Virus genome (UHGV): UHGV-0378206
Reading direction: 5' to 3' (one strand)
DNA length: 34,503 nucleotides
DNA from: a virus
In this document: piece by piece, positions 1,118 through 22,437 of the stretch
Layout of the letters: every line of letters starts with the position of its first letter
How positions within the stretch are numbered: the first letter of the stretch is position 1
The notes under the pieces: model-generated
Seen by the model: the letters and a program-made list of their open reading frames with translations, nothing else
What the model was told of the DNA's origin: nothing
The model's database searches: none
Made by a program: the position numbers and the translations under genes

Positions 1118-1165
1118 TAAATTTAGATGTTGATTTTTTCAACCGTAGGGCAGAAAAAACAAGGC

Positions 1166-1194: not shown

Positions 1195-1281
1195 AGCTCT
1201 TGCTCTTCAATTATGAATTAAAAATTTGATATTTAATTATTTTGATGATAACAATGAAGAAATATAAAAAGAGGAGGTGTT

Positions 1282-1479
1282 ATGAAAGCAGTTTATTTAT
1301 TTGGGGTGATTTTTTTAATAATTGATTTGTTGCTTGGTTTTTATATTTTTGATAAAGGCGGGACCGATGCAGCTATCAAATCTGGGCTAATGGGGAATCT
1401 GTCGGTATGTATTATTTTTATGACTGTGGGAGTGTATGTGCCGGTACTTATCTGGTCACTTGCAGAAAGGAAAAAATAG
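1282..1479 (+). CDS. small hydrophobic (membrane) protein, 65 aa
   Basis: Strong RBS 'agaggagg' upstream of ATG; two hydrophobic segments; function unknown. Confidence 0.4.
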   Translation: MKAVYLFGVIFLIIDLLLGFYIFDKGGTDAAIKSGLMGNLSVCIIFMTVGVYVPVLIWSLAERKK

Positions 1480-1518
1480 CTATTAATACAACTCGAATAT
1501 AATAGCTATTACCGGAAC

Positions 1519-2058: not shown

Positions 2059-2279
2059 TTGAAACTCCTGTTAAAAACTTCGGTTTTAATTGTCAATAAT
2101 AGATCATATGCTGTAGTTGATATAGTCATATAAACATAACAGTCTTCTGTATGATGTGCTGTTTTTATCTTTGCAGTTTAATAAGTAAATTTTTATTTGT
2201 TCTGAGGGGATTCTATTCTCATAATAACTATGGAAAATGCAATCATCTTTTTTAGATAAAGGGATTGTTAAGTCTTCAA

Positions 2280-3602
2280 TTATTTCCTCTGTAGATAAAT
2301 GAATGTTTTACAGTTATTATTAGAGGTTCTTTCAAAATGATCAGCAAGTTTATTTATTTGCTGATCTTTATACATTTCTATATTGTCAAGTTCAGGACAG
2401 ATTTCACTGAACGCAAAGATTGGAAAGAACTGGGAACTCTGTATCTTCTGTTTATTTAATAATATAATTAATTGCTTATTTGCTTCCTCTACAATCTTGA
2501 AATAATCTTGCATCATTTCAGGCTTGGTTTGAAACTCATACTTAACTCGTTTATGAGAACCTACGGCTAATACCATTTGTCCATTTTTTAACTGGTCTAA
2601 ATCTTCTGTGATTTTTACTTCAATTTCACCACCGCTTTTTATTTCATTCCAGACTTTTTGAACTTTTCTAATATCCATTGCTGAAACTGGTAATATTAAG
2701 TCTGATAAACTTTTATATATAGAAGAGTAATCGTCGGTTTTGATTTTATTTATTCTTATAGTGGTAGCATTCCCTATGTATATATCGTGTTCAGATATGG
2801 CAGTAGATCTTGAATCTTTTTCATATTCCACAAGCAAAAAATTACTTCTAATTTTATTTGCTATATCTGAGTTAGTAGGTACATAGGAAAAAATGGTCTT
2901 TAGAATTTGCTGTATGTTTCTGTCACTAATGCTGTATCCAATAAAGATAACAGGATTATGAATAAATAGTGAGAGTAATTGTGCTCTAATTAGTTCATAT
3001 TTGTTATCGAAATAGTCATAATCTTGTTCTGTAATCGTTAGTTCGTAAGGGGCTGACACACAACCATGTATTTTATAGACAGAACCATAAGGATTACTTA
3101 AAAGTATGCTATTGCCTATTAGTGGTTCAAATTCAAAGAGTTGCTCAATCAATAAATCATAGTTCGTTGTGATGATTGATCCGATGTTTTTTCTCATCTT
3201 AATGAGTTCAGCTATCTCTTCGCTTTTTTCTTCTTTTAATTCTACAGTTGATAATAGCTGAGTAATATATATTTTAAATCTGCTTAAATTAATTCCCTTA
3301 TCCATCTCTTTATAGAAAATATCATTTATTTCTTTAAACTTTCCATTTCTATCGTTAGACAAAGTTTCATTGAATTTTCTTTCTATATCACTGGCAATTT
3401 TATCATATTTATATTCACCATTGATTTGACATTTTGATTTAATATCAAGATATGTTTCTTTATCACCAGTGAGTTCGAAACAAATATATGAGAGTAAACC
3501 ATTCCAATCATAGGAATTAGAGAGATATCGCAAGCTAAACCCAGTTCCGATGAAGAGCACTGGATGATTTCGATACTTTGCTATGAATTCATTAATTTCC
3601 AT
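2280..3602 (-). CDS. SIR2-like (SIR2_2-type) domain protein, probable NAD+-consuming defence effector
   Basis: Ordered motifs in the N-terminal ~230 aa: 'PVLFIGTGFS' (GxGxS), 'IITTNYDLL' (TTNYD), 'YKIHGC' (KxHG), 'VIFIGYSISD' (GYSxxD); C-terminal ~200 aa unassigned. Confidence 0.75.
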   Translation of the reverse strand: MEINEFIAKYRNHPVLFIGTGFSLRYLSNSYDWNGLLSYICFELTGDKETYLDIKSKCQINGEYKYDKIASDIERKFNETLSNDRNGKFKEINDIFYKEMDKGINLSRFKIYITQLLSTVELKEEKSEEIAELIKMRKNIGSIITTNYDLLIEQLFEFEPLIGNSILLSNPYGSVYKIHGCVSAPYELTITEQDYDYFDNKYELIRAQLLSLFIHNPVIFIGYSISDRNIQQILKTIFSYVPTNSDIANKIRSNFLLVEYEKDSRSTAISEHDIYIGNATTIRINKIKTDDYSSIYKSLSDLILPVSAMDIRKVQKVWNEIKSGGEIEVKITEDLDQLKNGQMVLAVGSHKRVKYEFQTKPEMMQDYFKIVEEANKQLIILLNKQKIQSSQFFPIFAFSEICPELDNIEMYKDQQINKLADHFERTSNNNCKTFIYLQRK

Positions 3603-3812
3603 ATCTCACCATAACTTGTTGATTTTATGTGCTTTAATGTGTTACTGTTGACGTATTAAGGTATATCTAACATACATTATTATTCTTTATGCCAGTTGTC
3701 TAGCATATAGTCATAACTCTTTAAGCCAAAAAATTGTCTGTTCGCGCTTTGTCCGTAGTACATGTGTATACTAACATGTATTAGATTTTTCATTATACGT
3801 TTGGTGTAATTA

Positions 3813-4577
3813 ATGCTGAAAATTAACAAATGTCCACTTTGCCGTAAAAATAATGAACTTGTCCATAGCCATTTGATTTCTAAGTTTGTTTATAAAATTA
3901 TTCGCGAATGTCAGCCATATGAGAAAATAAACGAATGTTCTCCAATGATTGTTGATAGCCGTTTAGGTCTTCTACAGAAATCAACACGTCAAGAAAAACA
4001 AATTCTCCTTTGTTCTGCATGTGAAGAGTTATTTTCTGAAAAAGAAACTGCGATGGCGAAAATTATTCGTGAACTGCAAAGAACAGATGTGAGGCAGAAA
4101 AAGATATTAGCATACCAAAAGGAACTGTGTAGCAAATTAAATGGTCAAGACATTCTTTATTTTACAGATGAAAAAGTCTCTACAATTAAATATTTTGCTA
4201 TGTTGAATTTATTTAGAAATATAGTGTGCGAGAGAGTGCCTCGCATAGTAAGAAAAGAGTTAATTAAGATTAGAAAATATCTTCTACGCGAATCTGATTA
4301 TTCTTTGCCATTAATCATTCATGTTAACGACAGTGATTTTTTCCCCATAGCCTCAACTCCATTCAAAATTGATTCTGATAATTGCTATCATTATATTTTT
4401 TTAATTCCTGAGTTTTTATTTCATTTCTTCTTTTGTATGTCACAACTAAACTTGCAGTTTAATGACGTAATGATTATGCCAGAACATCTTTCTTCAAAAG
4501 AAGAAGTGGAAATTCACCTTAGGAACTCAATGAAAGACATTCGCATTGCTAATAATGCAAAGAAATATATAAAATGA
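3813..4577 (+). CDS. hypothetical protein with N-terminal Cys/His cluster
   Basis: 254-aa ORF; 'CPLC...HSH...CSAC' suggests a zinc-binding module; remainder unrecognised; weak RBS. Confidence 0.45.
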   Translation: MLKINKCPLCRKNNELVHSHLISKFVYKIIRECQPYEKINECSPMIVDSRLGLLQKSTRQEKQILLCSACEELFSEKETAMAKIIRELQRTDVRQKKILAYQKELCSKLNGQDILYFTDEKVSTIKYFAMLNLFRNIVCERVPRIVRKELIKIRKYLLRESDYSLPLIIHVNDSDFFPIASTPFKIDSDNCYHYIFLIPEFLFHFFFCMSQLNLQFNDVMIMPEHLSSKEEVEIHLRNSMKDIRIANNAKKYIK

Positions 4578-4625
4578 TTAGCTTTTGATGGACTTCGAGT
4601 GACTTGGCAAATAAGTACGTATTGG

Positions 4626-4916
4626 TTATTTTTTGAGGCATTTAATAGCATAATGAAAAGAAATGTCCTCTAATCCAGTTTTTGTTTTCAAATAAAAACA
4701 TCTGGTGCCGTGTAGTGATCTACCTGCAGTGATTCCTATGCATTCATTCTTACTTTTTTCTTCCCACTCATCGTGGTTTTTAAATAATTCGATCAAAAAA
4801 TTATAATCACTAATGCTCACTTCTTGATGGTCTTTGGTTTTGTTTAGAATGCTTTGTGCCTGACTGATTATATCTTTCTTAGTAGCATAAATAATATTGT
4901 TGATAGTGTATGACAT
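4626..4916 (-). CDS. hypothetical protein, 96 aa
   Basis: ORF with RBS 'agga' upstream of ATG; no recognisable motif. Confidence 0.4.
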   Translation of the reverse strand: MSYTINNIIYATKKDIISQAQSILNKTKDHQEVSISDYNFLIELFKNHDEWEEKSKNECIGITAGRSLHGTRCFYLKTKTGLEDISFHYAIKCLKK

Positions 4917-5115
4917 GTTTTTTCCTATTGTTAGATAACATCGATTTTCTTACCTAATTAGGCATGAGATATTAAATTGTAACATATTTAATTGATAGTG
5001 CTTTCTGGAATCAGATTTTTGAAAGTTTAAAATGTTTTTCAGTTCTATTATTGTAAATAATAAAAACGTATCCTTAACAGAACAGTATGGAATTTCTAAA
5101 AAATCTATAATCATA

Positions 5116-5165
5116 AATTAATTCACTGAAGTTTTGACTGCTAAAATTACTTCAGTGAATTAATT
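5116..5165. repeat. 17-bp perfect inverted repeat (hairpin) just 3' of the 5189..6328 gene
   Basis: 'aattaattcactgaagt' (5116..5132) and its exact reverse complement 'acttcagtgaattaatt' (5149..5165) with a 16-nt loop; likely operon terminator or regulatory/recombination site. Confidence 0.5.
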
Positions 5166-5188
5166 ATGAATGGAAATTTGCTTTGTAG

Positions 5189-6328
5189 TTAGTTTTGTTT
5201 TTGATAGTCTCTTTGATGTTGAAGAATCAATTCAAATTCTCTAACTTCTGCAACTATATGAGTTACATGATGTGTCGTGTCTATTGATACCCAATTCGTA
5301 GTATTACCAACAAATTCTTCATTGGCACATTCATAAATCTTTTTATCACCCCAGCTAAATTTCTCACCTTTATAATGGGGGGATGAAACCAGTATCTTAC
5401 ACAAATCTTGCATTTGTGCTCCCTTTTTACCGGTAGCACGAGAATACCCTCTTACAACGAAAAGGCTATCGTCTATAGTATATCTAATCTTACCGTTAGC
5501 ATCGGGTGCAATGATGTCATCTCCGATAGAGGGATTAACGATACCATAATCTCCAAATACTAAATTTAAATCAGGTTGGAATTTTTTGAATGCTTTCCAT
5601 ACCTTAGCTTCTTTACGGATAACTATACCTTCTGAATTGTGGGTAGGAACCATTCCATTAATATCACTTGTTATTGAACTTCCTGCAATTGAAATAAATT
5701 TAAAATCATACTTGTATAATGAATCCAGTGCTCTCTGCACTGTTTCATTTAGGTCAACTATGGATGTTTTAGTTATATCTTCTAAATCTATCATTACCGA
5801 GCAATTTTCTGGCATTGCACCCAAGGAAGTTAAAATGCCTTCTATTGTTTCAATAAACGGTTCCTCTTCGATCATATCTTCAAAAGCAAAGGAGTTTAAC
5901 CGAATTACAAAGTCAGTATAGCTTGTACCTAATTGTTGCAAAGTAGTTGCATACTCATCATCTTCCCATCGATCATAACCGACGACAGGAATGATATTGC
6001 ACCCAGCATTTCTTAAGGCACTGGTGAGATGACTCAAAATATGCTCTCCTGTTTCAAGAGAAGAGTTTGGAGGCCATCTGCTTATATCAATCCCCATGGG
6101 GAGATTTTGCATCCTTTCGGACAATGTTTTAATTGTATTGTTTAGAAAAAACTCAACTGGATTACCTATGTTAGAGTATTTTTTATTTGTTCTCTGCTTT
6201 TTCGACAGATATGGGATTTCAAAAATCGGAAGCATGTCCCTCATAACGTGGGGATAAGGAAGCATAGACTTAATGGCATCTAACTCACCTTTCTTAGCTT
6301 TTAAAATCGGCATATATTTAGGGTACAT
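5189..6328 (-). CDS. hypothetical protein (379 aa), third gene of the HigB/HigA-ImmA operon
   Basis: ORF starts 14 nt after the stop of the upstream gene, RBS 'gaggtg'; N-terminus 'MYPKYMPILKAKKGELDAIKSM'; no catalytic motif recognised by eye. Confidence 0.6.
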   Translation of the reverse strand: MYPKYMPILKAKKGELDAIKSMLPYPHVMRDMLPIFEIPYLSKKQRTNKKYSNIGNPVEFFLNNTIKTLSERMQNLPMGIDISRWPPNSSLETGEHILSHLTSALRNAGCNIIPVVGYDRWEDDEYATTLQQLGTSYTDFVIRLNSFAFEDMIEEEPFIETIEGILTSLGAMPENCSVMIDLEDITKTSIVDLNETVQRALDSLYKYDFKFISIAGSSITSDINGMVPTHNSEGIVIRKEAKVWKAFKKFQPDLNLVFGDYGIVNPSIGDDIIAPDANGKIRYTIDDSLFVVRGYSRATGKKGAQMQDLCKILVSSPHYKGEKFSWGDKKIYECANEEFVGNTTNWVSIDTTHHVTHIVAEVREFELILQHQRDYQKQN

Positions 6329-6341
6329 ATAGACACCTCGT

Positions 6342-7571
6342 CTACCAAATATGATTAGGGAAATGCTTTCTTACTTCACCTTGACCAACTAAATCAGAAA
6401 ATTGATTGTATTTTCCAGTTTCTCTTCTAATTCTTCCTGCGATTATTGCAGGATGAATTCTTAATTCTCTTGAAAGCTCATCTATCGTGAATGTGCTGGG
6501 ATTTAAGTAAGCTGAACTCCGTTTCCAAATGACGCGAGGAATGAGAGTATCTCTGGCTATTCGATTAGCCTCTGCTTCCATTTTGTCTGTACTATTCTTG
6601 AGTGTTTCAATGTCATCGATAAATGTGTTAGTAGAATCTGCATGTTTCCAGATATGGACTAACTCATGTAAAAGTGTAAACCAGAAATTATCCAAACGAT
6701 CTTGTCTTAAAGTGAGTGCAATAATTGGTCTACCGTCAATATCCCTCAGAGCAGCCCCATCAACAGCAGTACCAGTCAGACAAGGTTCAATGATCACACA
6801 AATCCCATTTTTTTCTAAGAACTCCACCGCTAATAGAGGTCCATATTCGGACCAACTTAAATGTGCGATCTCTTTTAAAAAATCTTTAGTTATGCAATCT
6901 TGCTTAAATTTAGTTGCGAGTTTTTTTTCCCTGGCTTTCTGGACTACTCTTGCAATCCATGCATGTAATTTATAAACAGTTGTAGGTGAGTAAGACTCTC
7001 CGTTAAGTGTTCGCTTGAAGGCTGCTGTAGAAAAATTCGCACCCAAACCCTCAATGAAATTTTTGACTTTTTCTTCTGTAGTCGTTTTTGTTTGCGAGAC
7101 AATGTTTTCTATCCAACCTTTGGAAAGCATTTCTTTTATAGGAAATTTTGACCAATTAACCTCCTCAACTGGAGAACGATTTGCATATCCAGTTTCTGTT
7201 TCTAAGCCCAATAATGTTTGAGGAGACATACCTAAACCTATTGATAAGGCTTTGATCATAGCGACGGTTAAAGGACGTTTTCCCGATAACACCTCTGATA
7301 CACGACTTTTTGTTCCAAAATATGGGGTGAGATCCGCTTGGCGTAAGCCCTGTTCGTCCATTCGGAATTTGATTGCCTCGATTGGATCTACCGGTGTTAC
7401 TGGATAGTTAGCATTTTCATAATTTTCAATAACAACTGTAAGTAAATCAAGACGTTCTGATTCTTCAGATCCTGCAGGAAGATCCAATCTGAGTAATCTC
7501 TCAACTTCTGAAAGGGCCGCATGATATTGTTCTTCAGTTCGAATAACCCGAACTTCAGTAAGTTTACTCAT
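6342..7571 (-). CDS. HigA-like HTH antitoxin domain fused to ImmA/IrrE-type zinc metallopeptidase domain
   Basis: N-terminal region resembles HigA-type HTH antitoxins ('GTKSRVSEVLSGKRPLTVAMIKALSIGLGMSPQTL'); C-terminal half has HEXXH 'LLHELVHIW'; start overlaps upstream stop as ATGA. Confidence 0.7.
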   Translation of the reverse strand: MSKLTEVRVIRTEEQYHAALSEVERLLRLDLPAGSEESERLDLLTVVIENYENANYPVTPVDPIEAIKFRMDEQGLRQADLTPYFGTKSRVSEVLSGKRPLTVAMIKALSIGLGMSPQTLLGLETETGYANRSPVEEVNWSKFPIKEMLSKGWIENIVSQTKTTTEEKVKNFIEGLGANFSTAAFKRTLNGESYSPTTVYKLHAWIARVVQKAREKKLATKFKQDCITKDFLKEIAHLSWSEYGPLLAVEFLEKNGICVIIEPCLTGTAVDGAALRDIDGRPIIALTLRQDRLDNFWFTLLHELVHIWKHADSTNTFIDDIETLKNSTDKMEAEANRIARDTLIPRVIWKRSSAYLNPSTFTIDELSRELRIHPAIIAGRIRRETGKYNQFSDLVGQGEVRKHFPNHIW

Positions 7572-7831
7572 TTAGATACCACCTGGTTAATCACCGCAAT
7601 GCTCCTTTCAAACTGAAATGTTACTTTTATGCCCTGCGATTTAATGCCTCGAACAAAGAACACATAGCACAAATTATCAATCTGCTGTGCTCTGGGGAAA
7701 GCATCTAAAACTCCCTTAGCATCTTTCCAGTAAGCGTTAGTGAGCTCTGCAACCCAAGCGGAAAGCCAAACATCCGTTTCAGGGTTAGTACCACTTAGCA
7801 CTTGAAGCCTTTGCTTGCCGATTAGTCGCAT
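7568..7831 (-). CDS. higB: HigB-family (RelE/ParE-fold) toxin-like protein
   Basis: About 87 aa from the internal ATG with RBS 'ggaga' (ORF extends to 7882); sequence pattern resembles E. coli-type HigB; toxin-upstream-of-antitoxin order as in higBA. Confidence 0.55.
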   Translation of the reverse strand: MRLIGKQRLQVLSGTNPETDVWLSAWVAELTNAYWKDAKGVLDAFPRAQQIDNLCYVFFVRGIKSQGIKVTFQFERSIAVINQVVSK

Positions 7832-8037
7832 TGATGTTCTCCATTTGGGAACCAGAATAAGTGTGGTGATTCTGAATGTCAATACAATGTTCCCATAAGT
7901 GGAACTTGTCGCCTCCAGTTCTCATCTCTTTATGGCTACATAACTCTAAGAATCAATGGAAAGCTCTTTAATAAGAATAAAAATATGATTTAGATCAAAT
8001 GTATATCGGCGTGCCGGGATGCTTATAGTGGGGCGAT

Positions 8038-9267
8038 TTAGGCCGCAATCGCTTTTAGCTTTTGAGCCTGAACATAGTTACTCCACCACTGCATGAGAAC
8101 CACTCGTTCTGCAAGATAATCTGCGCGATTATATGCGGCAATTATTTCATCTTTCTTCGAGTGAGCAAGGGCCGCTTCTAAGACATCTGTCCTGAACTTA
8201 CCCGACTCCTCTGAGGCCGTTCGTGCAATAGATCTCATTCCATGGGCTACAAGCTCTCCACCAAAGCCCATACGGATTATGGCCGCATTCGCTGTTTGTT
8301 CATGCATATGATTGAGTGGAGCTTTGATACTGGGGAAAACCCACTCTCTGTGCCCACTGATGGCTTTCATTGAATCCAAGACTCGCAAAGCTTCTTTGCT
8401 TAGTGGAACTTTGTGAGGCTTCTTCATTTTCATAAACTCAGCCGGGATGTTCCACATCGAGTTGTCAGTATCTATATCGGCCCATCTCGCACGAACGGCT
8501 TCCCCTGGACGAACCCAGGTCAGCAATTGCCATTCAATCAGCAATCTTGTCTCCATACGAACTGAGGCATTGTTTAACACCATTAGGAAGCGGGGTAACT
8601 CGGAAGGGGGTAATGCTGGCATATTCTGTTTTTTAGGCTTACTGAACCGTTGCCCAAGGTTGTCAGCCGGATTGAACTCGATAAGTTCTTCAGTCGCGGC
8701 CCAGCGAAAAATTTCATTTAATCGGGAAATGATTCGCCGTAAGGTTTCGAGGACTCCTCGTTGTTCAATAGGGTCGAGATGTTGCTTTAAGAGTTTGGGT
8801 CGGATCTCATTGATAGGAACCTTACCCAAGCCGGGAAATATATTTCTCTCCAAGCTTCGCCAGATGTCTTCTGCATGGTCTTGTGAGATACCAGAGGTCT
8901 TTACCTTCTCATCCAACCATTTCCTTGCCACGGCTTGGAGAGTGTGTTCAGTAGCATTCTTTAAGGCATTAGCTTTATCGTTGTTATGAACTTGGGGATC
9001 AATGCCATTAGCAAGCAAGGAAAGGTATTCATCTCGTAAGGCTCTGGCTCTTGCCAGTGTAAGGTGAGGATAGGTCCCAAGGCTCATTTTGGTTCTTTTT
9101 TTACTCACTGGCACTGCATACCTGAAATACCAATTCTTCTTTCCTCCTTTCGAGAGGGGAGCGATTCGTAGTATCAAACCATCTCCGTCAAACAAGTTGA
9201 TTTCTTTGTCGGCTGGCTTGGTGCTTTTGATTTCAGTGTCAGTGAGCTTCTTAGCGATTTTTGCCAT
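8038..9267 (-). CDS. intA: tyrosine integrase, IntA/P4 family (CP4-57-like)
   Basis: 'DIWRSLERNIFP' and C-terminal 'HGMRSIARTA...LAHS...AYNR' are integrase catalytic-domain features; sits next to the ssrA 3' fragment as in CP4-57; start at ATG 9267 (RBS 'gaggg'), alternative ATG at 9309. Confidence 0.85.
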   Translation of the reverse strand: MAKIAKKLTDTEIKSTKPADKEINLFDGDGLILRIAPLSKGGKKNWYFRYAVPVSKKRTKMSLGTYPHLTLARARALRDEYLSLLANGIDPQVHNNDKANALKNATEHTLQAVARKWLDEKVKTSGISQDHAEDIWRSLERNIFPGLGKVPINEIRPKLLKQHLDPIEQRGVLETLRRIISRLNEIFRWAATEELIEFNPADNLGQRFSKPKKQNMPALPPSELPRFLMVLNNASVRMETRLLIEWQLLTWVRPGEAVRARWADIDTDNSMWNIPAEFMKMKKPHKVPLSKEALRVLDSMKAISGHREWVFPSIKAPLNHMHEQTANAAIIRMGFGGELVAHGMRSIARTASEESGKFRTDVLEAALAHSKKDEIIAAYNRADYLAERVVLMQWWSNYVQAQKLKAIAA

Positions 9268-9364
9268 TTTGGGACCCTCGGTTTTTGGACCCTTCTTAGT
9301 GGGTCCCATTCAGGGTGCCATATGTGATAGTTCTCAGCAATTCTCACTGGACGACAATAGACGT

Positions 9365-9397
9365 AAAAAAGCCCGCAGAGCTTATGCTATGCGGGCT
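9365..9397 (-). terminator. intrinsic terminator downstream of the ssrA 3' fragment
   Basis: On the minus strand a GC stem 'gcccgca...tgcgggc' is followed by a run of six U. Confidence 0.6.
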
Positions 9398-9432
9398 TAG
9401 TAGACTTCATTGTACTTCAAACAACTAAAAAG

Positions 9433-9477
9433 TGGTGGAGCTGGCGGGAGTTGAACCCGCGTCCGAAATTCCTACAT
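9433..9477 (-). other. ssrA: 45-nt 3' end of tmRNA gene ssrA (att core / direct repeat); not an intact tmRNA gene
   Basis: Reverse complement reads 'atgtaggaatttcggacgcgggttcaactcccgccagctccacca', the acceptor/T-arm 3' terminus of enterobacterial tmRNA; flanking sequence does not continue into the tmRNA body. Confidence 0.8.
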
Positions 9478-9603
9478 ACTATTTTTAATACAATGAAAAC
9501 AGTAGTTTGCGTTTAAAAACAGTGTGTTACTATTATCCTGTGTTTATCCGTTTTACGCATTTTTAATGCTCTGCCGCCAAGTTGTCGCCAATTTTAGGCT
9601 AAC

Positions 9604-10617
9604 TTACGGTTGGCTGTTTTTAACATTCAAAAGAAAGTTCTTCCAAATTATTTGCAGTGAATTTTTATCTAAATCAATCTTATGAGGTTTGATGTTTTTT
9701 CCTTCATATATATTTTTGTAATAGCAATCGATAGCAAAATGAATAGTTAAATTATCTGGATGTATGGCTAGTAGACCTCGGTCAAGCAAGGCATGAAGGG
9801 TAGGTTCAAGAGGTATTCCATTGTTGGTTCTATGGTTTTGGGTCTGAGAAAATGGTTCAAGGTGACATGCCTGCAATACTGGGAGGTTGTAACCTGTTAT
9901 TGCGCATACATTTGAGAAGTTTTTTAGAACCCTTTTTTTAAAGTCAACCTGTTCGCCAGAGTCACGCTGTAATACTGTTTGCAGATGAGTATTGCCTTTT
10001 GTGACAACTGGTATACTAATTGTATCAGAGGGATTTATAAATATGACTGGCGGTAGAGTAGGTTCTAGAATGTTTTTTTGTCCAAGAAACTGCCTTGATA
10101 ATAATTCATCTTTAGCGATTTTTATTGCTTCACTTTTTGTTAATGAAAGGCATGCCAGATTATACGCATCTACATTGAAATATTTAGTTTCCCTGTTTAG
10201 CGTAATGGATGATATTTTTTTATCGTGTTCTGCTATTGGTATACCTTTTGTGACAGGATGCGAAATGCTTTCAAGCAGTGTTGTATTGCCATTTATTTCT
10301 TTATTAAACAATGAGGTAGGGTGTTCAATCATATTGCTATGCTTGGCGCGATAGTGCTCATATAGGCCATGAGCACTTTTGAAATTTTTCTTGCATATTA
10401 TACAGCTAACATTTCCTCCATTAATTTTTTTTGAATTTCTTTTTCTGGATTCAACAAGAGAGTTTGTTAGATCTTCTCTTAGTTTTAATATTCTGAGGTT
10501 GGTTGGGTTGTTTCCTCGTCTATATGGTAAGCTCTCAAGTCTATTTAACTCATTTTTGAGGTGTTGGTACTGTTTACGTGAAATTAAATTAGGTTTCATA
10601 TTTAAGATTAAGATCAC
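9604..10617 (-). CDS. C2H2 zinc-finger plus HNH_2-type nuclease domain protein (prophage cargo between att and int)
   Basis: 'CIICKKNFKSAHGLYEHYRAKH' (C2H2 finger); C-terminal 'CAITGYNLPVLQACHLEP...NNGIPLEPTLHALLDRGLLAIH' matches the HNH_2 signature; gene is AT-rich unlike the adjacent int. Confidence 0.65.
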   Translation of the reverse strand: MILILNMKPNLISRKQYQHLKNELNRLESLPYRRGNNPTNLRILKLREDLTNSLVESRKRNSKKINGGNVSCIICKKNFKSAHGLYEHYRAKHSNMIEHPTSLFNKEINGNTTLLESISHPVTKGIPIAEHDKKISSITLNRETKYFNVDAYNLACLSLTKSEAIKIAKDELLSRQFLGQKNILEPTLPPVIFINPSDTISIPVVTKGNTHLQTVLQRDSGEQVDFKKRVLKNFSNVCAITGYNLPVLQACHLEPFSQTQNHRTNNGIPLEPTLHALLDRGLLAIHPDNLTIHFAIDCYYKNIYEGKNIKPHKIDLDKNSLQIIWKNFLLNVKNSQP

Positions 10618-10639: not shown

Positions 10640-11671
10640 TTACATGTTATTCGACAAGTATATAAAGTTCAAAGGGTTTTTCGTTACTGCATCTTCCAGA
10701 TGGTCTGGAGAAAAATGGGCGTAAATCATCGTCATTTTTATATCGGCATGGCCCAAAATATCGCGCAGTACCAGTATGTTTCCGCCGTTCATCATGAAAT
10801 GGCTGGCGAATGTATGGCGTAGAACGTGGGTGCATTGTCCCTCTGGCAGTTCAATACCAGCTCGTTTTACTGCCCGTTCAAAGGCTTTTCTGCATGGGGT
10901 GAATAGCCTTCCTCTGTTTTTAGGGAGTTCGTTGTAAAGATCCTGAGATATTGGCACGGTACGGTTTTTCTTGCCCTTCGTCTTGGTATAAGTGATGCGG
11001 TATTTGGATAACTGATGGCCCTGCAGATTTTCTGCTTCACTCCACCGTGCGCCAGTAGCTAGGCATATTTTTGCAATCATTAGTAAGCTAGGGCTTTGAG
11101 ATTCAGCACATGCCGCCAACAGGCGCTTGATTTCGTCCGTGGAAAGAAAAGCCAGCTCACCTTCGGCAATTTTGAAGGTCGGAAGTCCTGCCAGCGGGTT
11201 TGGTGCTGACCAGTGTCCTAGTTTTTTTAATGTACCGAACACCGATGATAGATTGCGCTGTTCAAGGTTTACCGTGCGGGGCTTAACGGGCGACATAAGC
11301 GTGCCATCTTCATTTCGTATTTCACCTTTTAACCGTGCTTCGCGGTATTTCGTAAAGTCTCCGGCTGTCAGCTCAGAGGCGATGGGGTCGCCTAGACCAT
11401 TACAGATAATTCTAAGTTTCGCCATGAGGCGCTTGGGGTCTGCGAGTGTCTGACCATACAGGGAATACCAAAGCTCAATTAATTCTGATAGGCGTCGCCG
11501 ATCATCCTTTTCACCCAACCACGGTTTTTTATTCACTTCTTCCATTGTGAAGCTTTCAAACGCAATGGCTTCGCCTTTCGTGGCAAATTGCTTACGCACG
11601 CGCTTGCCATTGCGTCCATTGGGATAGCACTCACACAACCATTTTCCGTTCGGCTGTTTTCTGATGGTCAT
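10640..11671 (-). CDS. int: P2-type tyrosine integrase
   Basis: 'GRNGKR', 'RRLSEL', 'TGARWSEA', 'RTVPIS', 'HVLRHTFASHFMMNGG', 'LGH...MTMIYAHFSPDHLEDAV' match P2 Int signature blocks. Confidence 0.9.
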   Translation of the reverse strand: MTIRKQPNGKWLCECYPNGRNGKRVRKQFATKGEAIAFESFTMEEVNKKPWLGEKDDRRRLSELIELWYSLYGQTLADPKRLMAKLRIICNGLGDPIASELTAGDFTKYREARLKGEIRNEDGTLMSPVKPRTVNLEQRNLSSVFGTLKKLGHWSAPNPLAGLPTFKIAEGELAFLSTDEIKRLLAACAESQSPSLLMIAKICLATGARWSEAENLQGHQLSKYRITYTKTKGKKNRTVPISQDLYNELPKNRGRLFTPCRKAFERAVKRAGIELPEGQCTHVLRHTFASHFMMNGGNILVLRDILGHADIKMTMIYAHFSPDHLEDAVTKNPLNFIYLSNNM

Positions 11672-14250: not shown

Positions 14251-15095
14251 GCACCATCCTGAAATGGGCGGGAAATAAAACGGCCATTATGGCAGAACTG
14301 AAAAAATACCTTCCTGCTGGCCCGCGACTGGTTGAACCTTTCGCGGGTTCCTGCGCAGTGATGATGGAGACGGATTACCCCAGCTATCTGGTTGCGGATA
14401 TTAATTCTGATTTAATCAACCTCTATAAAAAGGTTGCCGCTGATTGTGAATCGTTTATATCTCGCGCCAGAGTTTTATTTGAGAACGCAAACAGGGAGAT
14501 GGCTTATTACAACATAAGGCAGGAGTTTAATTACTCAACTGAAATTACTGATTTCATGAAAGCAGTATATTTCCTGTATCTCAATCGTCACGGTTACCGT
14601 GGTTTATGTCGCTATAACAAGAGCGGGCATTTCAACATTCCCTACGGTAATTATAAAAATCCGTATTTCCCTGAAAAAGAAATTCGTGCATTTGCAGAAA
14701 AAGCCCAGCGGGCAACATTTATCTGCGCCAGCTTCGATGAAACGCTGGCAATGTTGCACGCGGGGGATGTTGTGTATTGCGATCCGCCTTATGACGGTAC
14801 GTTTTCCGGTTATCACACTGACGGCTTCACTGAAGATGACCAGTATCACCTGGCATCCGTTCTTGAACATCGGTCATCAGAAGGACATCCGGTCATTGTT
14901 TCTAACAGTGACACATCCCTGATCCGTTCGCTGTATCGCAATTTCACTCACCACTACATCAAGGCAAAACGCAGCATTGGCGTGTCAGCTGGCGAGAGTA
15001 AATCTGCAACAGAAATCATTGCCACCAAATCAGCTGGGTGGTTTGGTGTCGATTTTGCCAGCGGCTCTGACCGTACCGTTGAGGTACGCGCATGA
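14247..15095 (+). CDS. dam: DNA adenine methyltransferase (Dam family)
   Basis: N-terminal 'LKWAGNK...EPFAGS' AdoMet-binding motif and 'DPPY' catalytic motif ('[10 protein letters not shown]'); ORF 14187..15095 with preferred start 14247. Confidence 0.85.
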
Positions 15096-16102
15096 ATGCT
15101 ATCGATCCGCGTTGCTTTGCCTCAGGCACAATTAACGTCATCACTACTTCTGGTGGCAAAGATAGTCTCGCTCAATGGCTAAGAGCCATTGAAAACGATG
15201 TTCCGCATATTTCTGTATTTGCCGATACGGGTCATGAACATCCACAGACAATAGAATATCTGGATTATCTGGAATCAAAGCTGGGCAAGATTATTCGCGT
15301 CAAAGCGGATTTCACACGCCAGATAGAAGGGAAACGTAAATTCATTGCGGAAAAGTGGCCCATTTCTCTCGTTGAGGAATGTGGTATGTCGACAGATGAG
15401 GCTGAGGAACGTATTTACCGGGCACTGGAAATCCTTAAACCAACCGGCGTTCCGTTTCTTGATTTGTGCATGTGGAAAGGTCGCTTCCCTTCAACAAAAG
15501 CTCGTTTCTGCACTTTTGAACTGAAACATGAACCAATACGTACACAGGTAATCGATCCAGCTCTGGATGAATACGATGAGGTAATAAGCTGGCAAGGAGT
15601 CCGGGGGCAGGAATCACCGGAACGTGCATTGTTGCCTGAGTGGGAGGACGATGCAGACAATACTCTGGGGCTGCATGTTTATCGTCCGATCCTTAATTGG
15701 CTGCATGAGGATGTGTTTGCTATTGCCAAACGTCATGGCATTAAGCCTAACCCCCTTTATATGCAGGGATGCAGTCGTGTCGGTTGTATGCCATGCATTC
15801 ATGCTCGCAAGTCAGAACTTGGAGAGATTTTCCAACGCTGGCCAGAAGAAATCCGCCGAGTGGCTGAGTGGGAAAGACTGGTTGCGGAATGTTCAAGACG
15901 TGGCAATTCAACGTTCTTTCAATCCACGCATGATCCGCGCCGTGCTGAAAAACGGATCGAAGTCATAACTGTTGATGCTTATGGCATTGAAACTTATCGG
16001 GACTGGGCCTTAACGACTCGGGGCGGTATGCAGTTTGACCTGCTGGCAGGCATGAATGATAAAGCGGTGTGCAGCAGTGTATATGCAGGAGTCTGTGAGT
16101 GA
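15092..16102 (+). CDS. PAPS-reductase-like (PP-loop ATP pyrophosphatase family) protein
   Basis: PP-loop 'TSGGKDS' near N-terminus; Cys cluster '[13 protein letters not shown]'; translationally coupled to dam and gene A. Confidence 0.7.
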
Positions 16103-18540
16103 CAGAGATCAGCACAGGCCGTCTTGCCGATCCATTTGTCAGTGTAACTTCCGGTAGCATTGAGAATTCTGCCGGGGGTTATTCGTGGAATTTACCTAAG
16201 AAAGCCATTAACCCTTATCTGGACCCGGCGGAAGTTGCGCCGGTTTCTGCGCTTTCAAACCTGATCACTCTGTACGCTACCGATAACGAGCAGGAACAAC
16301 TGCGCCGCGAGGCACTGAGTGATCAGGTCTGGGAGCGTTATTTCTTTAATGAATCCCGTGATCCTGTCCAGCGCGAAATGGAGCAGGATAAGCTCATTAG
16401 CCGGGCAAAGTTGGCGCATGAGCAGCAGCGTTTTAACCCGGACATGGTCATTCTGGCAGACGTCAGCGCCCAGCCCTCCCATATCAGCAAGCCGCTGATG
16501 CAACGTATTGAATACTTCAGCAGCCTGGGCAGGCCAAAGGCTTATTCCCGCTATTTACGTGAGACGATTAAGCCATGTCTGGAACGACTGGAGCATGTAC
16601 GCGACAGCCAGCTATCTGCATCTTTTCGTTTTATGGCAAGCCATGTAGGGCTGGACGGCCTGCTGATTCTGCCTGAAATGAGTCAGGATCAGGTGAAACG
16701 CCTGTCTACCCTTGTCGCTGCGCATATGAGTATGTGCCTTGATGCAGCTTGTGGTGATTTGTATGCCACCGATGACGTTAAGCCAGAAGAAATCCGCAAG
16801 ACATGGGAAAAGGTGGCAGCGGAAACCCTGCGTCTGGATGTCATCCCGCCTGCGTTTGAGCAACTCCGTCGGAAAAGAAACCGCCGTAAACCCGTGCCCT
16901 ATGAACTCATTCCGGGTTCGCTGGCGCGTATGTTGTGCGCCGACTGGTGGTACCGGAAATTATGGAAAATGCGTTGCGAATGGCGGGAAGAGCAGTTGCG
17001 TGCTGTCTGCCTGGTCAGCAAAAAAGCATCTCCCTATGTCAGCTATGAAGCCGTGATGCATAAACGTGAGCAGCGCCGCAAGTCACTGGAGTTTTTCCGT
17101 TCTCATGAACTGGTGAACGAAGAGGGCGACACGCTGGATATGGAAGACGTGGTAAACGCCAGCAGCAGCAACCCGGCGCACCGCCGCAATGAGATGATGG
17201 CCTGTGTTAAAGGTCTGGAGCTTATCGCGGAAATGCGCGGTGACTGCGCCGTTTTCTACACCATTACCTGTCCGTCACGTTTCCATTCTACGCTCAATAA
17301 CGGCAGACCAAACCCAACCTGGACAAATGCGACGGTAAGACAAAGCAGCGATTATCTGGTCGGCATGTTTGCTGCATTTCGTAAGGCGATGCACAAAGCC
17401 GGGTTGCGCTGGTATGGCGTGCGGGTGGCTGAGCCGCATCATGACGGTACAGTTCACTGGCACCTGTTGTGTTTCATGCGCAAAAAAGACCGCCGCGCCA
17501 TTACTGCATTGTTGCGTAAGTTTGCCATCCGTGAAGACCGCGAGGAACTGGGTAATAACACTGGTCCACGCTTTAAATCTGAGCTGATAAACCCGCGCAA
17601 AGGAACGCCGACAAGCTACATCGCGAAATACATCAGTAAGAACATTGACGGGCGTGGTCTGGCTGGCGAGATCAGCAAGGAAACGGGTAAATCCCTGCGT
17701 GATAACGCTGAATACGTTAATGCCTGGGCGTCTCTGCATCGTGTACAGCAATTCCGCTTCTTTGGTATTCCGGGACGTCAGGCTTACCGTGAACTTCGCT
17801 TGCTGGCTGGTCAGGCGGCAAGGCAACAAGGTGACAAAAAAGCAGGTGCGCCGGTACTGGATAACCCGCGTCTTGATGCCATTCTGGCTGCTGCTGATGC
17901 TGGTTGTTTTGCCACCTACATCATGAAGCAGGGCGGCGTACTGGTCCCCCGCAAATATCACCTCATCAGAACCGCTTATGAAATCAACGAAGAGCCAACC
18001 GCCTATGGCGATCACGGTATTCGTATTTATGGCATCTGGTCACCCATTGCAGAGGGCAAGATCTGCACTCATGCAGTGAAGTGGAAAATGGTTCGTAAGG
18101 CCGTTGACGTTCAGGAGGCGGCAGCCGACCAGGGCGCTTGCGCCCCTTGGACTCGTGGCAATAACTGTCCCCTTGCTGAAAATTTGAACCAACAGGAGAA
18201 AGATAAATCAGCTGATGGGGACCCCAGAACGGACATTACCAGCATGGATGACAAGGAGTTGCACGATTACCTGCACAGTATGAGCAAAAAAGAGCGCCGG
18301 GAACTGGCAGCAAGGTTACGCCTGGTGAAACCGAAACGGCGTAAAGACTACAAACAGCGAATTACAGACCATCAGCGACTGCAGCTCGTGTATGAGCTGA
18401 AGTCCAGAGGATTTGATGGCAGCGAGAAAGAGGTCGATTTACTCCTTCGCGGAGGCAGTATTCCGTCAGGAGCAGGCCTGCGTATCTTCTATCGGAACCA
18501 GCGTTTGCAGGAAGATGATCAGTGGCGGAACCTGTATTAA
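16099..18540 (+). CDS. A: replication initiation endonuclease (P2 gpA family, rolling-circle HUH)
   Basis: 813-aa ORF with '[13 protein letters not shown]' HUH-type motif and conserved Tyr-containing region; position and size match P2 A. Confidence 0.85.
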
Positions 18541-18892: not shown

Positions 18893-19126
18893 ATGCGCAT
18901 TGAAATAATGATCGATAAAGAGCAGAAGATTAGCCAGTCTACCCTGGACGCCCTTGAATCCGAGCTTTACCGCAATCTGCGCCCCCTGTATCCCAAAACG
19001 GTAATTCGCATTCGCAAAGGTAGCTCTAACGGTGTGGAACTAACCGGACTGCAACTGGACGAAGAAAGAAAACAAGTGATGAAAATTATGCAGAAGGTGT
19101 GGGAAGACGACAGCTGGCTGCATTAA
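18893..19126 (+). CDS. DinI-like protein (possibly the DinI-like domain of a Tum-type antirepressor)
   Basis: 'MRIEIMIDKEQ...LDALESELYRNL...VIRIRKGS...KQVMKIMQKVWEDDSW' parallels E. coli DinI over its full length; RBS 'gaggtga'. Confidence 0.7.
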   Translation: MRIEIMIDKEQKISQSTLDALESELYRNLRPLYPKTVIRIRKGSSNGVELTGLQLDEERKQVMKIMQKVWEDDSWLH

Positions 19127-19260
19127 GAAACGTTGCTGGCGTCTGAACTTGCTTCTGGCGTCAGCAAGGTTGAACAACGAGCCCTTGCGAGGCGTTAGCT
19201 CTGTAGTGCATGTCTATGCTGCATGAGATCGCATGATCGTTTGAGGATCGTTTTTGCTAA

Positions 19261-19288
19261 GGCCCGCCAGAACTGGCGGGCTTTTGCG
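19261..19288 (+). terminator. rho-independent terminator
   Basis: 'ggcccgccag aa ctggcgggc' stem-loop followed by 'ttttgcg'. Confidence 0.65.
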
Positions 19289-19330
19289 TAGATCATGCAG
19301 GTGCATGAAAACCACTACATAAAGCGGGCA

Positions 19331-19349
19331 GGCGTGGCGGGGATACGAG
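19331..19349. other. candidate cos-like GC-rich motif (low confidence)
   Basis: 'ggcgtggcgggga' resembles the 5' part of the P2/186 cohesive-end sequence as I recall it (GGCG[A/T]GGCGGGGAAAGCA-); the 3' part diverges. Confidence 0.25.
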
Positions 19350-19439
19350 CGCGCGTTGCAAACCATGTCGATGCTGTTATCATTTGCAGCAAGTTTTCAA
19401 AGTGCTAAAGCATTCTTTAATTCCAAGGTAGGTATAGAT

Positions 19440-21380
19440 ATGATAGCCGGGTTGTTTATCCGTAACGTCAAAACATATCAAGGCATAAATTATATTCCTT
19501 TGACAGACGCTCCAAATTTTAGCGGTTTCTTAGGAAATAATGGGATAGGGAAAAGCTCAATACTTGAGGCATTGGATGTAATATTTAATGCTAAAGAGTG
19601 GAATTATAATACAGCTGTCAAAAAGAGCGGTATAGAAAAAACCAGCCCACATATTGTACCGGTTTTTATATTGGAGGAGGATTTTTTTGATTCTGAGACA
19701 CTCCCTTTTGCAAAAACGCTAGATGCTTTAGCTAGGGAGGTTAGCTTAGAGGATGCTACAAACTCACAAACAAAAACTATTCTTGAAAATTTTATAAGTC
19801 ATCGTGATAGACTTTTTGCACGAAATGATATGCAAGGGCAGTTAATTATTCCTATTGGACGCCTTCATAATAATAATATGTCATTATCTGTTTTAGCAGG
19901 TAGAAGTCTATCTACTATAATGGAAAAAGATATATTTGGTGCCGGATTCAAGTTAAGTGAAGGTATAGAGTTAGCTAAACATTTTCAAGTTTTATTTGAT
20001 TATATCACTGGTAAGTTAGAATATTTATATATACCAAAAGAGATTGATACTGAGGTTTTTACTAAGCTTGAGAGTATTGGAACTCAAGTATTGATGGGTG
20101 AATCGCTGCATGAAATTCTTGATAGAATAGTTGGTGAGTCAAAAATTGGAGAAATCAACAGAGAACTAAGCGGATTTCTTGAAGATATCTCAACGAAGCT
20201 AGTTAACTATACGTATAGAACGCCTTCGGATAGGCAAAAAAGAATTCAAAAAAAAGAAGTCTATAACTTAATTATACAAGCGTTTTTTAACGTCAGAAAA
20301 TTACATAAAACCCACAATGGCGAGCATTTTTTAGAAATTAGTAATTTGAGTTCGGGGGAAAAGCAGAAGGCTATTATTGATGTTGCGCATGCATTGCTGA
20401 CAAAGCATAGAAGTAATAGTGATAATTTAATCATAGCCATAGATGAGCCTGAGTCTTCATTGCACATGTCTGCTTGTTTTGAACAATTTCAAGCGTTATC
20501 AGAACTAAGTTTAGGATGTAGGCAACTATTGTTTTCCTCTCATTGGTATGGTTTTCTCCCCACCTTGGAAAAGGGAACTGTTACAATAATAACTAAAAAA
20601 AATAATGAGCATCTTTTTGATCTGATCAATTTAGCATCTTACCGGGAAGAAATAAAACAACTTGTTCGAGATAGTAGGGGAAAGTTACCATTTGATATTA
20701 GAATTAAAAGTATGAATGATTTTACTCAGTCATTATTATCTAGTGCAACAGGTGAGAAACCATATAATTGGTTGATTTGTGAGGGTTCATCGGAAAGAAT
20801 TTATCTTTCAGCATATTTTAAGGATTTGATAAAGAATCATAATCTTCGTATTGTACCTGTTGGGGGGGCGTCGGAAATTAAAAAAATATATAACTATCTC
20901 TCTGCCTGCTATAAGGATGTCGAAGGGGAGATTACCGGAAATATATATTTGTTAGCTGATACTGATAGCCAGTTGGTCAGATATGACGTCGGAACATATC
21001 AAAGATTACATTGTAAAAGATTTGTTTATGATTCGTCTAAAAACAGGGCGATCTTAGTTAAGATAGACACAAATCCGGTATCGCCTGCAACTGAGATAGA
21101 GGATGTTTTGAACGCAAAAATCTATTACCAGACCTTATTGTCATTTGCTGGTGATTACGATTATTTAAGTTTCATTAATAATATTGATGCTCCAAGTGAT
21201 AATCTGGAATCTTACTCAGCTCTTGATCTCAGAGTTAGTGAAAAAAATGCCATAAATAGATTTTTTGATGATGGAAATAATAAGTTTTTATTCGCAAAAA
21301 GATATGTTGAATTAATGACGGAAGAAAATAGTGTTCCAGAGTGGATTAGTGAGATTAGAGAGGTAATGACTTCAGCTTAG
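19440..21380 (+). CDS. ABC-type ATPase fused to Toprim-like nuclease domain (OLD-family-like; possibly fused PARIS AriA-AriB-like) at the P2 old/tin cargo position
   Basis: Walker A 'GNNGIGKSS', ABC signature-like 'LSSGEKQ', Walker B 'LIIAIDEPESSLH'; C-terminal 'LICEGSSER' and 'LLADTDS' fit Toprim E / DxD motifs; AT-rich; preferred start ATG 19440 (RBS 'aaggtagg'), ORF opens at 19356. Confidence 0.75.
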   Translation: MIAGLFIRNVKTYQGINYIPLTDAPNFSGFLGNNGIGKSSILEALDVIFNAKEWNYNTAVKKSGIEKTSPHIVPVFILEEDFFDSETLPFAKTLDALAREVSLEDATNSQTKTILENFISHRDRLFARNDMQGQLIIPIGRLHNNNMSLSVLAGRSLSTIMEKDIFGAGFKLSEGIELAKHFQVLFDYITGKLEYLYIPKEIDTEVFTKLESIGTQVLMGESLHEILDRIVGESKIGEINRELSGFLEDISTKLVNYTYRTPSDRQKRIQKKEVYNLIIQAFFNVRKLHKTHNGEHFLEISNLSSGEKQKAIIDVAHALLTKHRSNSDNLIIAIDEPESSLHMSACFEQFQALSELSLGCRQLLFSSHWYGFLPTLEKGTVTIITKKNNEHLFDLINLASYREEIKQLVRDSRGKLPFDIRIKSMNDFTQSLLSSATGEKPYNWLICEGSSERIYLSAYFKDLIKNHNLRIVPVGGASEIKKIYNYLSACYKDVEGEITGNIYLLADTDSQLVRYDVGTYQRLHCKRFVYDSSKNRAILVKIDTNPVSPATEIEDVLNAKIYYQTLLSFAGDYDYLSFINNIDAPSDNLESYSALDLRVSEKNAINRFFDDGNNKFLFAKRYVELMTEENSVPEWISEIREVMTSA

Positions 21381-21405
21381 TCATTACCTGATTATATTTA
21401 TTCAG

Positions 21406-22437
21406 TTACATGAGGTCATAAAATTCGAATTTTATGACCTCATTATCTATCCAATTGTTAATTTCAATTATTTTCTTTTGTAGAGGAAGAAGTTCATTAC
21501 GAACAAACACTTTACTCGCCTTCTCCACATCCCCAAACCCCCCGACATTATTAGGCATAATCCCCATCATCTGAGGCGGTACGCGGTGCGCAGCCATCAT
21601 GTCATCACGGCTCACGTTTTTGATATTCAGAAACTCATCCTTCGCTGCGACTTCTGACAACGGGATAATCTGAAGTCCGTCCTTTTTGCCGTTAGGCGAG
21701 TACATAAACAGATTGCGGAAGTTGCCAGGGCCTTTGGCGCTTTTCATCGCATTGCGGAGGTTGTTCACATCTTCCTGGTTCTGCGCGGCATCGGTCATGT
21801 ACATGATGAAGCCTGCATGACTACCGTTAATGTAATACTTCCGGCGGAATAGCGTGGCGGATTCGTTGAGCAGGGCGGATGGAATGGCAGAAAGATAGCC
21901 GGGCAGGCCGTAGATCTCCTGGTTGATGTCCGGTTCCATCAGATGAAAAATGCTGCCTTTCGTGAACTGATACGGCTGGGTTGTCATACCGTATTGCACA
22001 AACCAGTAGGTATCCAGGTCTAACCCGCGTCGGGTGTATTTTGCCAGAGCAGGCTCAAGGGCGATAACTTCACCGAAGCGGTTCGTGCGTTTCTCCAGGT
22101 AGGCGTTACCAAATACCAGATAGTCCTGCACAAAACGTGAAAAAGCCTGCTGGCTGAGCAGCGGGTGAGGGATGTAGGTACTGGTCAGAATGTTGCATTT
22201 TACTGCAATCGGTGAGCTGTGATGCACGGCAGCGCGGAAGGTTCGTGCCAGTCCGTCAAAGCTGACGGGCGGCTCATACCAACGGTCCATCTGTACGCAT
22301 TCCACATAGTCCAGTAATTCTCGGCGGTCCAGAACTGGAACGGGATCGCCGAAGCTGAATGCTTCGGCTGTAGTCTGGTTTTTATGCTGGATCTGATTCG
22401 TCGCCGCAGTGCGGTTTTTCTTACTCTTTCCCATCAA
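21406..22437 (-). CDS. Q: portal protein (P2 gpQ)
   Basis: 343 aa, size and position immediately downstream of P on the same strand as in P2. Confidence 0.9.
   Translation of the reverse strand: MMGKSKKNRTAATNQIQHKNQTTAEAFSFGDPVPVLDRRELLDYVECVQMDRWYEPPVSFDGLARTFRAAVHHSSPIAVKCNILTSTYIPHPLLSQQAFSRFVQDYLVFGNAYLEKRTNRFGEVIALEPALAKYTRRGLDLDTYWFVQYGMTTQPYQFTKGSIFHLMEPDINQEIYGLPGYLSAIPSALLNESATLFRRKYYINGSHAGFIMYMTDAAQNQEDVNNLRNAMKSAKGPGNFRNLFMYSPNGKKDGLQIIPLSEVAAKDEFLNIKNVSRDDMMAAHRVPPQMMGIMPNNVGGFGDVEKASKVFVRNELLPLQKKIIEINNWIDNEVIKFEFYDLM

Follow-up and report, generated by a model that had tools for sequence, protein, structure and literature searches.

In the 34,503-nucleotide stretch of virus genome UHGV-0378206 analysed here (hereafter the window), a P2-like prophage carries a gene on the plus strand at 19440-21380, stop codon included, between its replication module and portal gene Q. 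Its 646-residue product is, judging by sequence and predicted fold, a divergent ABC-ATPase/Toprim nuclease of the OLD family. The genes of the prophage are ordered integrase, CI, CII, Dam, gpA (16099-18540, from Pfam and the annotation of the prophage genes), a small open reading frame (ORF), a DinI-like gene, the OLD gene, portal gene Q, terminase gene P and the capsid genes. Both Q and P lie on the strand opposite to the OLD gene. The DinI-like gene (18893-19126, plus strand; Pfam DinI, 6.6e-23), of the tum type and labelled 'DinI-like family protein' by RefSeq at the homologous locus, ends the series of conserved genes in the early/replication module, and portal gene Q (21406-22437, minus strand; Pfam Phage_portal and RefSeq annotation) forms the right border of the slot. 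Both are context and not cargo.

In the ORF listing the gene is an ORF at 19356-21380 on the plus strand that opens with TTG and gives 674 residues, but translation almost certainly begins at the ATG at 19440. This reading of the sequence follows from a AAGGTAGG Shine-Dalgarno element 8 nucleotides (nt) 5' of this ATG, from the lengths of hundreds of homologs (640-646 residues, with the N-terminus MI(V/A)G), from the related locus L013, where the frame 5' of the ATG differs and is not conserved, and from the table of Rousset et al. 2022, in which the protein begins with MIAGLF. A first-pass annotation made from the letters of this DNA had left the length at 646-674 residues, of which the start evidence favours the smaller, and had given a span of 19289-21380; its end is right, while position 19289 falls in the conserved cos flank.

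Non-coding DNA around the gene is limited to 77 nt upstream and 25 nt downstream. A candidate sigma-70 promoter (TTGCAA, 16 nt, TG-TATCAT; 19356-19383, plus strand) matches the consensus at 9 of 12 positions and spans the boundary between conserved and variable sequence; promoter-like sites around the gene are not enriched over shuffled sequences. A terminator-like hairpin with an 11-base-pair stem (21361-21389, plus strand) overlaps the stop codon at the point where the cargo gene and portal gene Q converge, in the place of the tQ terminator of P2. Another, G+C-rich hairpin, GCCCGCCA-GAAC-TGGCGGGC and then TTTT, was read from the sequence at 19262-19285 (plus strand) within the conserved cos-proximal flank and is kept in the related prophages L013 and L014. 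It is possibly the terminator of the early operon; with just four T's, it was not reported by the terminator scan.

The cos-proximal cargo slot

The left border of the slot is a cos-like 19-mer, GGCGTGGCGGGGATACGAG (19331-19349, plus strand). Alignment with P2 cosR/cosL identified it as the counterpart of the P2 cohesive end GGCGAGGCGGGGAAAGCAC, along with the flanking AAGCGGGC and GCGCG..TG. The two 19-mers have five differences, and a search with the P2 19-mer allowing up to 3 mismatches gave no match. Similarity to P2 runs about 9 nt past the 19-mer and then ends. The cos motif also lies about 100 nt 5' of the homolog in five related loci (L001, L013, L014, L015, and L018).

In P2, old and tin are found between gpA/orf91 and cos, and the 167-nt spacer from cos to Q contains only the tQ terminator. 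In the prophage of the window it is the stretch from cos to Q (19350-21405) that the OLD gene fills, the one from DinI to cos being empty. By this alignment the gene is on the Q side of cos, across cos from P2 old and tin and reversed in orientation relative to them. The first-pass assignment to the classical P2 old/tin locus therefore stands for the interval between the gpA/DinI module and portal gene Q, but not for the exact old/tin position.

That position is occupied in two closely related prophages. In L013 and L014 an extra gene precedes the OLD gene, located between DinI and cos. The extra gene of L013 (4047-4658, plus strand) encodes 203 residues with a hydrophobic N-terminus, and that of L014 (3975-4505, minus strand) encodes 176 residues. 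The two are mutually unrelated and lie on opposite strands, and are therefore additional cargo rather than partners of the OLD gene. Their position also indicates that the two sides of cos are separate cargo slots. In L015, the cos-flank motif occurs twice (343-363 and 4886-4906), and fragments of portal and terminase genes are duplicated on either side of the gene. These duplications could be tandem prophages or an assembly artefact.

The gene has a G+C content of 0.338, against 0.491 in the prophage to its left and 0.555 to its right. When a 2.2-kb query was compared with 5426 complete E. coli genomes, 1277 matched some part of it, and only 10 carried the gene. The partial matches listed covered the conserved left flank only (the first ~160 nt of the query), and among them the flank 19200-19362 matched genomes without the gene. 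Since the flank is widespread and the gene is rare, and since its composition departs from that of the prophage, the gene is a horizontally acquired, swapped-in cargo of the P2-like prophage, as the first-pass annotation had supposed from its AT-richness.

The cos-proximal region between gpA and gpQ is an experimentally validated anti-phage hotspot of P2-like prophages (PMC9122126), and the gene lies inside it as Rousset et al. 2022 define the region. The identical protein is already listed there as hotspot candidate #164, with 11 occurrences.

Domain architecture and predicted fold

Pfam models AAA_15 (54 bits, cut-off 32) and AAA_21 matched the N-terminal two-thirds of the protein above their curated cut-offs, and OLD-like_TOPRIM (PF20469) matched the C-terminal part with 27-29 bits (cut-off 23.2; 6e-6). 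The last model was also matched by all 19 family C-terminal halves examined. Because these scores exceed the cut-offs, it is confirmed that the gene and its domain assignment are not due to chance.

Conservation of motifs was evaluated in an alignment of 30 family members sharing 50-83% identity, with residues numbered on the 646-residue product. Walker A (P-loop) is GNNGIGKS at residues 32-39 (19533-19556, plus strand), with invariant K38. The ABC signature LSSGEKQ (residues 303-309) and Walker B IAIDEPE (residues 332-338, with invariant D335 and E336) lie together at 20346-20453 on the plus strand, in a stretch collinear with P2 Old, and H368 is the H-loop candidate. The Toprim core (residues 441-560; 20760-21119, plus strand) includes CEGSSE at residues 447-452 (20778-20795, plus strand) with invariant E448, the invariant D507-T-D509 at residues 507-509 (20958-20966, plus strand), and the invariant acidic residue E554 in TEIED (21090-21104, plus strand). 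All of these motifs are invariant or nearly so, including every ATPase and Toprim motif quoted in the first-pass annotation. The protein has the N-terminal ABC ATPase (Walker A, signature, Walker B, H-loop) and the C-terminal Toprim (Glu plus DxD) by which members of the OLD family are recognised. The C-terminal helical subdomain (residues 561-646; 21120-21377, plus strand) is less conserved; its invariant K615 could be the catalytic lysine that the helical domain contributes in OLD nucleases.

The ATPase contains a conserved insertion with a YRTPxDRQ motif (residues 201-300; 20040-20339, plus strand), delimited by the alignment and the AlphaFold model. With 30 of 100 positions invariant it is among the most conserved stretches of the family. 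It is also the worst-modelled region (predicted local distance difference test, pLDDT, below 50 for residues 204-300), so that its fold was not placed. In the architecture described for TsOLD and GajA, a dimerisation domain occupies the matching position (PMC10568477). The insertion is probably the dimerisation/sensor element of OLD ATPases, and may fold only in the oligomer or upon binding a ligand.

The C-terminal half was modelled with a pLDDT of 90.7. All specific top matches of this model in the fold comparison were OLD-type Toprim nucleases: BpOLD of Class 2 (score 10.2), the Retron-Eco2 Toprim (9.2), AriB (8.3), TsOLD of Class 1 (7.7), PH0156 (7.1), and GajA (7.1), followed only by generic Rossmann/CheY folds. 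Foldseek against the Protein Data Bank (PDB) agreed on these matches and gave nothing below an E value of 1e-3. Whether queried with the protein itself, with the family profile or with a profile of the C-terminal part, the PDB returned only Walker-A-level or spurious sequence matches. The predicted fold does not discriminate between the OLD classes.

Searches of NCBIfam and PHROGs added nothing specific. In PADLOC the protein had only weak matches (at most 55 bits) to the AriA, AbiLi, Old, MADS3, PtuA, and GajA models, whereas the PD-Lambda-2 and PDC-S25 genes of the same window, taken as a control, scored 98-590 bits. This difference places the protein outside every family of that 2023 library.

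Relatives, distribution and neighbouring elements

Among characterised proteins, P2 Old (NP_046798, 586 residues) is the nearest profile relative, sharing 24% identity over 262 residues (E 2e-6). Comparison of the family profile with P2 Old by hhalign gave 80.6% probability (E 1.3e-5, 220 columns), collinear from the signature motif to the Toprim Glu. Both proteins are single polypeptides with an ABC ATPase followed by an OLD-type Toprim, and both are encoded by stand-alone, non-essential cargo in the cos-proximal gpA-gpQ hotspot of P2-type phages. In contrast to P2 Old, the protein is longer, as the first-pass annotation had noticed, by 60 residues, and its PF20469 match is 6e-6 against 1e-17. 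Its gene is on the other side of cos, in the reverse orientation and without a tin partner gene. Distant homology at 24% identity rules out P2 Old itself or its orthologue. The first-pass annotation had named two outcomes that would speak against its reading, near-identity to P2 Old and a missing Toprim/DUF4435 match; the identity is low and the Toprim match is present. Its suggestion of a divergent Old or another OLD-family variant agrees with the AAA_15 and OLD-like_TOPRIM matches and with this distant collinear homology.

The same annotation had offered a fused PARIS as another candidate. Such a protein would be a Class 4-like single chain of AriA and AriB that responds to anti-restriction proteins such as Ocr by cleaving tRNA-Lys. 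The family shares the logic of ABC ATPase plus Toprim nuclease, and the carriage in phage and satellite hotspots, with PARIS, AbiL, and PDC-M38. The best PADLOC match of the whole protein is indeed the AriA model (3e-15), with AbiLi at 5e-14 and AriAB at 38.6 bits, and the C-terminal halves weakly match AbiLii and PDC-M38B (~1e-4 to 1e-5), the Toprim partners of two-gene PARIS-like systems. However, PARIS consists of two polypeptides, AriA and AriB, and the nuclease half of our protein does not resemble the latter. DUF4435 (PF14491) was matched by 0 of the 19 C-terminal halves even at E values up to 10, as against 19 of 19 for OLD-like_TOPRIM, and PADLOC applied to these halves alone gave no AriB or AriAB match. 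The AriA and AriAB scores of the full protein can therefore be traced to generic ATPase motifs. Against two fused-PARIS-like plasmid proteins (L030 and L031) hhalign gave 4% probability, compared with 81% for P2 Old, although these are imperfect comparators, being ~33-36% identical to a Vibrio protein labelled as fused PARIS by Rousset, whose tabulated sequence stops short of the nuclease domain, and likewise without a Pfam DUF4435 match. On balance membership of PARIS is not supported, and we consider a fused PARIS very unlikely; a PARIS-like way of working is possible.

Other known systems were compared as well. Class 2 OLD/Gabija GajA is ruled out: no UvrD-like helicase (GajB) was adjacent at the window locus or at any related locus, as the first-pass annotation had seen for this one, and GajA models scored at most 28 bits. 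With the C-terminal region of B. pseudomallei OLD (PDB 6NK8) and GajA the sequence identity is ~13-16%, at Foldseek E values above 1e-3. A Class 3 OLD/retron effector was rejected, the ATPase-Toprim_I-B model scoring 26 bits and the neighbours including no reverse transcriptase gene (no search for non-coding RNA was made). In Retron-Eco2 the Toprim is fused to a reverse transcriptase and controlled by msDNA (multicopy single-stranded DNA), whereas here the ABC ATPase is the controller and the locus has no reverse transcriptase. IbfA/HEC-04 (518 residues) is a different protein by length and description, and HEC-04 is absent among the 25 PADLOC matches listed.

Similar in organisation are Vc OLD, a Class 1 protein of Vibrio cholerae, and E. 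coli YbjD, both stand-alone OLD proteins with anti-phage phenotypes. Compared by published residue positions, the catalytic residues of Vc OLD are spaced differently, at K48, D313, and D468/D470 against K38, D335, and D507/D509 here. YbjD as a close relative is ruled out, as its alignment covers the surroundings of Walker A only. To judge from these sequence comparisons, the characterised Class 1 OLDs (P2 Old, Vc OLD, and YbjD) are lineages other than this clade.

How widely is the clade distributed? A word-indexed search returned 904 clusters (90% identity) at E values up to 1e-3, and when the 50%-identity representatives were searched exhaustively with the profile, 772 matched at this threshold and 294 at E values up to 1e-30. 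Most of the 150 matches listed are full-length (~625-670 residues), the remainder being fragments. The named sources include Enterobacter, Salmonella, Pantoea, Serratia, and Yersinia, further Pseudomonas, Shewanella, Halomonas, Marinomonas, Comamonas, Vibrio, Methylomonas, and Acinetobacter, and also Bacteroidales, Dyadobacter, Limnothrix, and Nostoc, so the family spans several phyla. A tblastn search of 50,697 GenBank phage records found no relatives of the gene.

In IMG/VR, 14 contigs contained full-length homologs. Six of these (L013-L018) occupy the same gpA...Q slot, and three adjoin a P2-type integrase. L016-L018 come from P2-like phages that differ considerably (31-35% identity in gpA, 60-74% in the portal), and this recurrence of homologs in one slot of divergent phages counts in favour of defence cargo. 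No conserved partner was found at the 14 viral-contig loci, whose flanks, probed with the prophage genes of the window, yielded P2-type phage genes only. All-against-all BLAST of the ORFs flanking eight genomic loci showed no shared neighbour; an exception among these loci is the Acinetobacter homolog, which adjoins a P2-type portal and terminase. By the genomic-context definition of OLD classes (PMC10568477), the gene is a stand-alone, Class 1 OLD.

Two homologs appear damaged. In Vreelandella aquamarina (L008, 6001-9600) the homolog is split by a ~1.7-kb insertion between residues ~370 and ~371, and in Nostoc desertorum (L010, 6001-6546) no more than the first ~150-180 residues are left. Such losses point to occasional inactivation.

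The window contains further elements of interest. Its left part (1-9500) is an AT-rich island with an overall G+C content of 0.35, and just one of the 5426 complete E. coli genomes has it at 80% coverage or more. With the P2-like prophage immediately adjoining this island, two mobile elements with defence cargo lie side by side. The island carries a complete three-gene PD-Lambda-2 defence system on the minus strand at 5189-7882, made up of component A (7568-7882, 1e-28), component B, an M78/IrrE-like peptidase (6342-7571, 9e-178), and component C, a Beta_protein (5189-6328, 5e-156). The system adjoins a P4-type integrase at 8038-9309. In the same island, at a G+C content of about 0.30, a gene for a SIR2_2-domain protein (2280-3602, minus strand) matches the candidate defence family PDC-S25 (2e-149) and, weakly, ThsA. 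An HNH_2 endonuclease-domain protein (9604-10617, minus strand; 9e-11) is encoded between the P4-type integrase and the P2-type integrase at 10640-11671. No tRNA gene was found within the window.

Within the prophage, a PAPS-reductase-fold gene (15092-16102, plus strand; Pfam 5.6e-34) lies between the Dam methylase gene and gpA, with PADLOC matches to SspD (4e-23), BrxP (6e-12), and weakly DndC. The otherwise homologous prophage L001 does not have it, and there Dam is directly 5' of gpA. For this reason the Dam-gpA interval may be a second cargo site.

Proposed function and its meaning

From its architecture, position and relatives we infer that the protein would be an ATP-gated abortive-infection nuclease of the OLD family, expressed from the lysogen and protecting it against other phages. 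We hold this account to be fairly probable. The full set of catalytic and signature residues of an ABC ATPase implies ATP-dependent engagement of the heads. In the proposed sequence of events, the ATPase and its insertion would keep the nuclease inactive (caged) and would sense a cue of infection: a phage protein, or DNA of aberrant or replicating structure. Binding and hydrolysis of ATP would then change the arrangement of the oligomer so that the Toprim site (E448, D507, D509, and probably E554) becomes accessible, after which the nuclease would cleave an essential nucleic acid and phage growth would stop. There are precedents for such a course. P2 Old, a tRNase activated by ATP, senses DNA structures, and its tetramer opens into dimers (PMC12445682; bioRxiv 10.64898/2026.07.10.737580), and Vc OLD acts by abortive infection that requires its Walker A, Walker B, and Toprim DxD residues.

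Which nucleic acid would be cleaved? Our tentative choice, somewhat short of an even chance, is host tRNA, which we place ahead of nicking or degradation of DNA as the next candidate, itself a lesser possibility. We prefer tRNA because P2 Old, nearest by profile comparison, belongs to a tRNA-cleaving system, as do two of the three top structural matches: the Retron-Eco2 Toprim cleaves tRNAs, and PARIS, with AriB as its nuclease, degrades tRNA (PMC10802454). Alternatively, the protein may be a DNA-targeting OLD like Vc OLD, GajA, TsOLD, and BpOLD, its Toprim nicking or degrading phage and possibly host DNA, so that replication and not translation would be blocked. Vc OLD, which is stand-alone, bacterial and characterised, nicks DNA and blocks the replication of phages; GajA also nicks DNA. 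However, the tRNA-acting relatives just named point the other way, and for P2 Old the DNase activity that had earlier been reported in vitro did not predict the target in vivo. As a complete explanation we find the DNA-targeting OLD rather unlikely.

Several points weigh against an anti-phage nuclease. In the literature we found no paper on functional tests of this clade. Similarity to all characterised OLD proteins is low at the sequence level (at most 24% identity, at most 55 bits in PADLOC, and no PDB sequence match for the nuclease half). The best match of the structural model, BpOLD, is a DNase in vitro, hence the weak substrate call. The promoter is a candidate by consensus match, and expression from the lysogen is presumed. 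Furthermore, some OLD-family proteins are not defensive or act independently of the nuclease: archaeal Cran1 functions in the cell cycle (PMC12796447), and the phenotype of YbjD does not depend on its Toprim domain (PMC13261556).

These last examples leave room for a role other than defence, such as a service to the prophage (replication, packaging, or control of lysogeny near cos), a selfish addiction module, or housekeeping like that of Cran1 and YbjD. The gene directly adjoins cos, and many homologs lie in chromosomes without recognisable phage genes within 6 kb. Yet with the gene in 10 of the 5426 complete E. coli genomes and a partial match in 1277, P2-like phages evidently do without it. 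Its base composition is foreign, the slot, a validated defence hotspot, is occupied by unrelated cargo in other phages, and the patchy distribution of the gene across phyla at high identity is typical of mobile defence genes. The two interrupted homologs also argue against a service function. We therefore regard a role other than anti-phage defence as very unlikely, and prefer the abortive-infection nuclease.

A further-reaching idea, which we put forward as rather doubtful, is that the clade is a separate, unnamed lineage of single-polypeptide OLD enzymes, whose own insertion (residues 201-300, YRTPxDRQ) would recognise a trigger unlike those of P2 Old, PARIS, Gabija, and Vc OLD. It would then protect Proteobacteria, Bacteroidota, and Cyanobacteria broadly against phages by means of a single gene, and its substrate specificity might be new. 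As the evidence stands, the gene adds to a known family and does not reveal a new principle, and is an already catalogued candidate in a known hotspot.

Its value lies in the question raised by the 2023 review of OLD proteins, namely whether stand-alone Class 1 members confer anti-phage defence alone. Among these members, studies to date cover only P2 Old, Vc OLD, and YbjD. The present clade is large (294 clusters at 50% identity and E values up to 1e-30), well conserved, found in several phyla, and repeatedly borne by P2-like phages. Native to E. coli and consisting of one gene, it would offer a convenient fourth Class 1 OLD model, useful for comparing OLD lineages in their triggers and in their choice of tRNA or DNA as substrate, and for learning what the strongly conserved insertion might sense.

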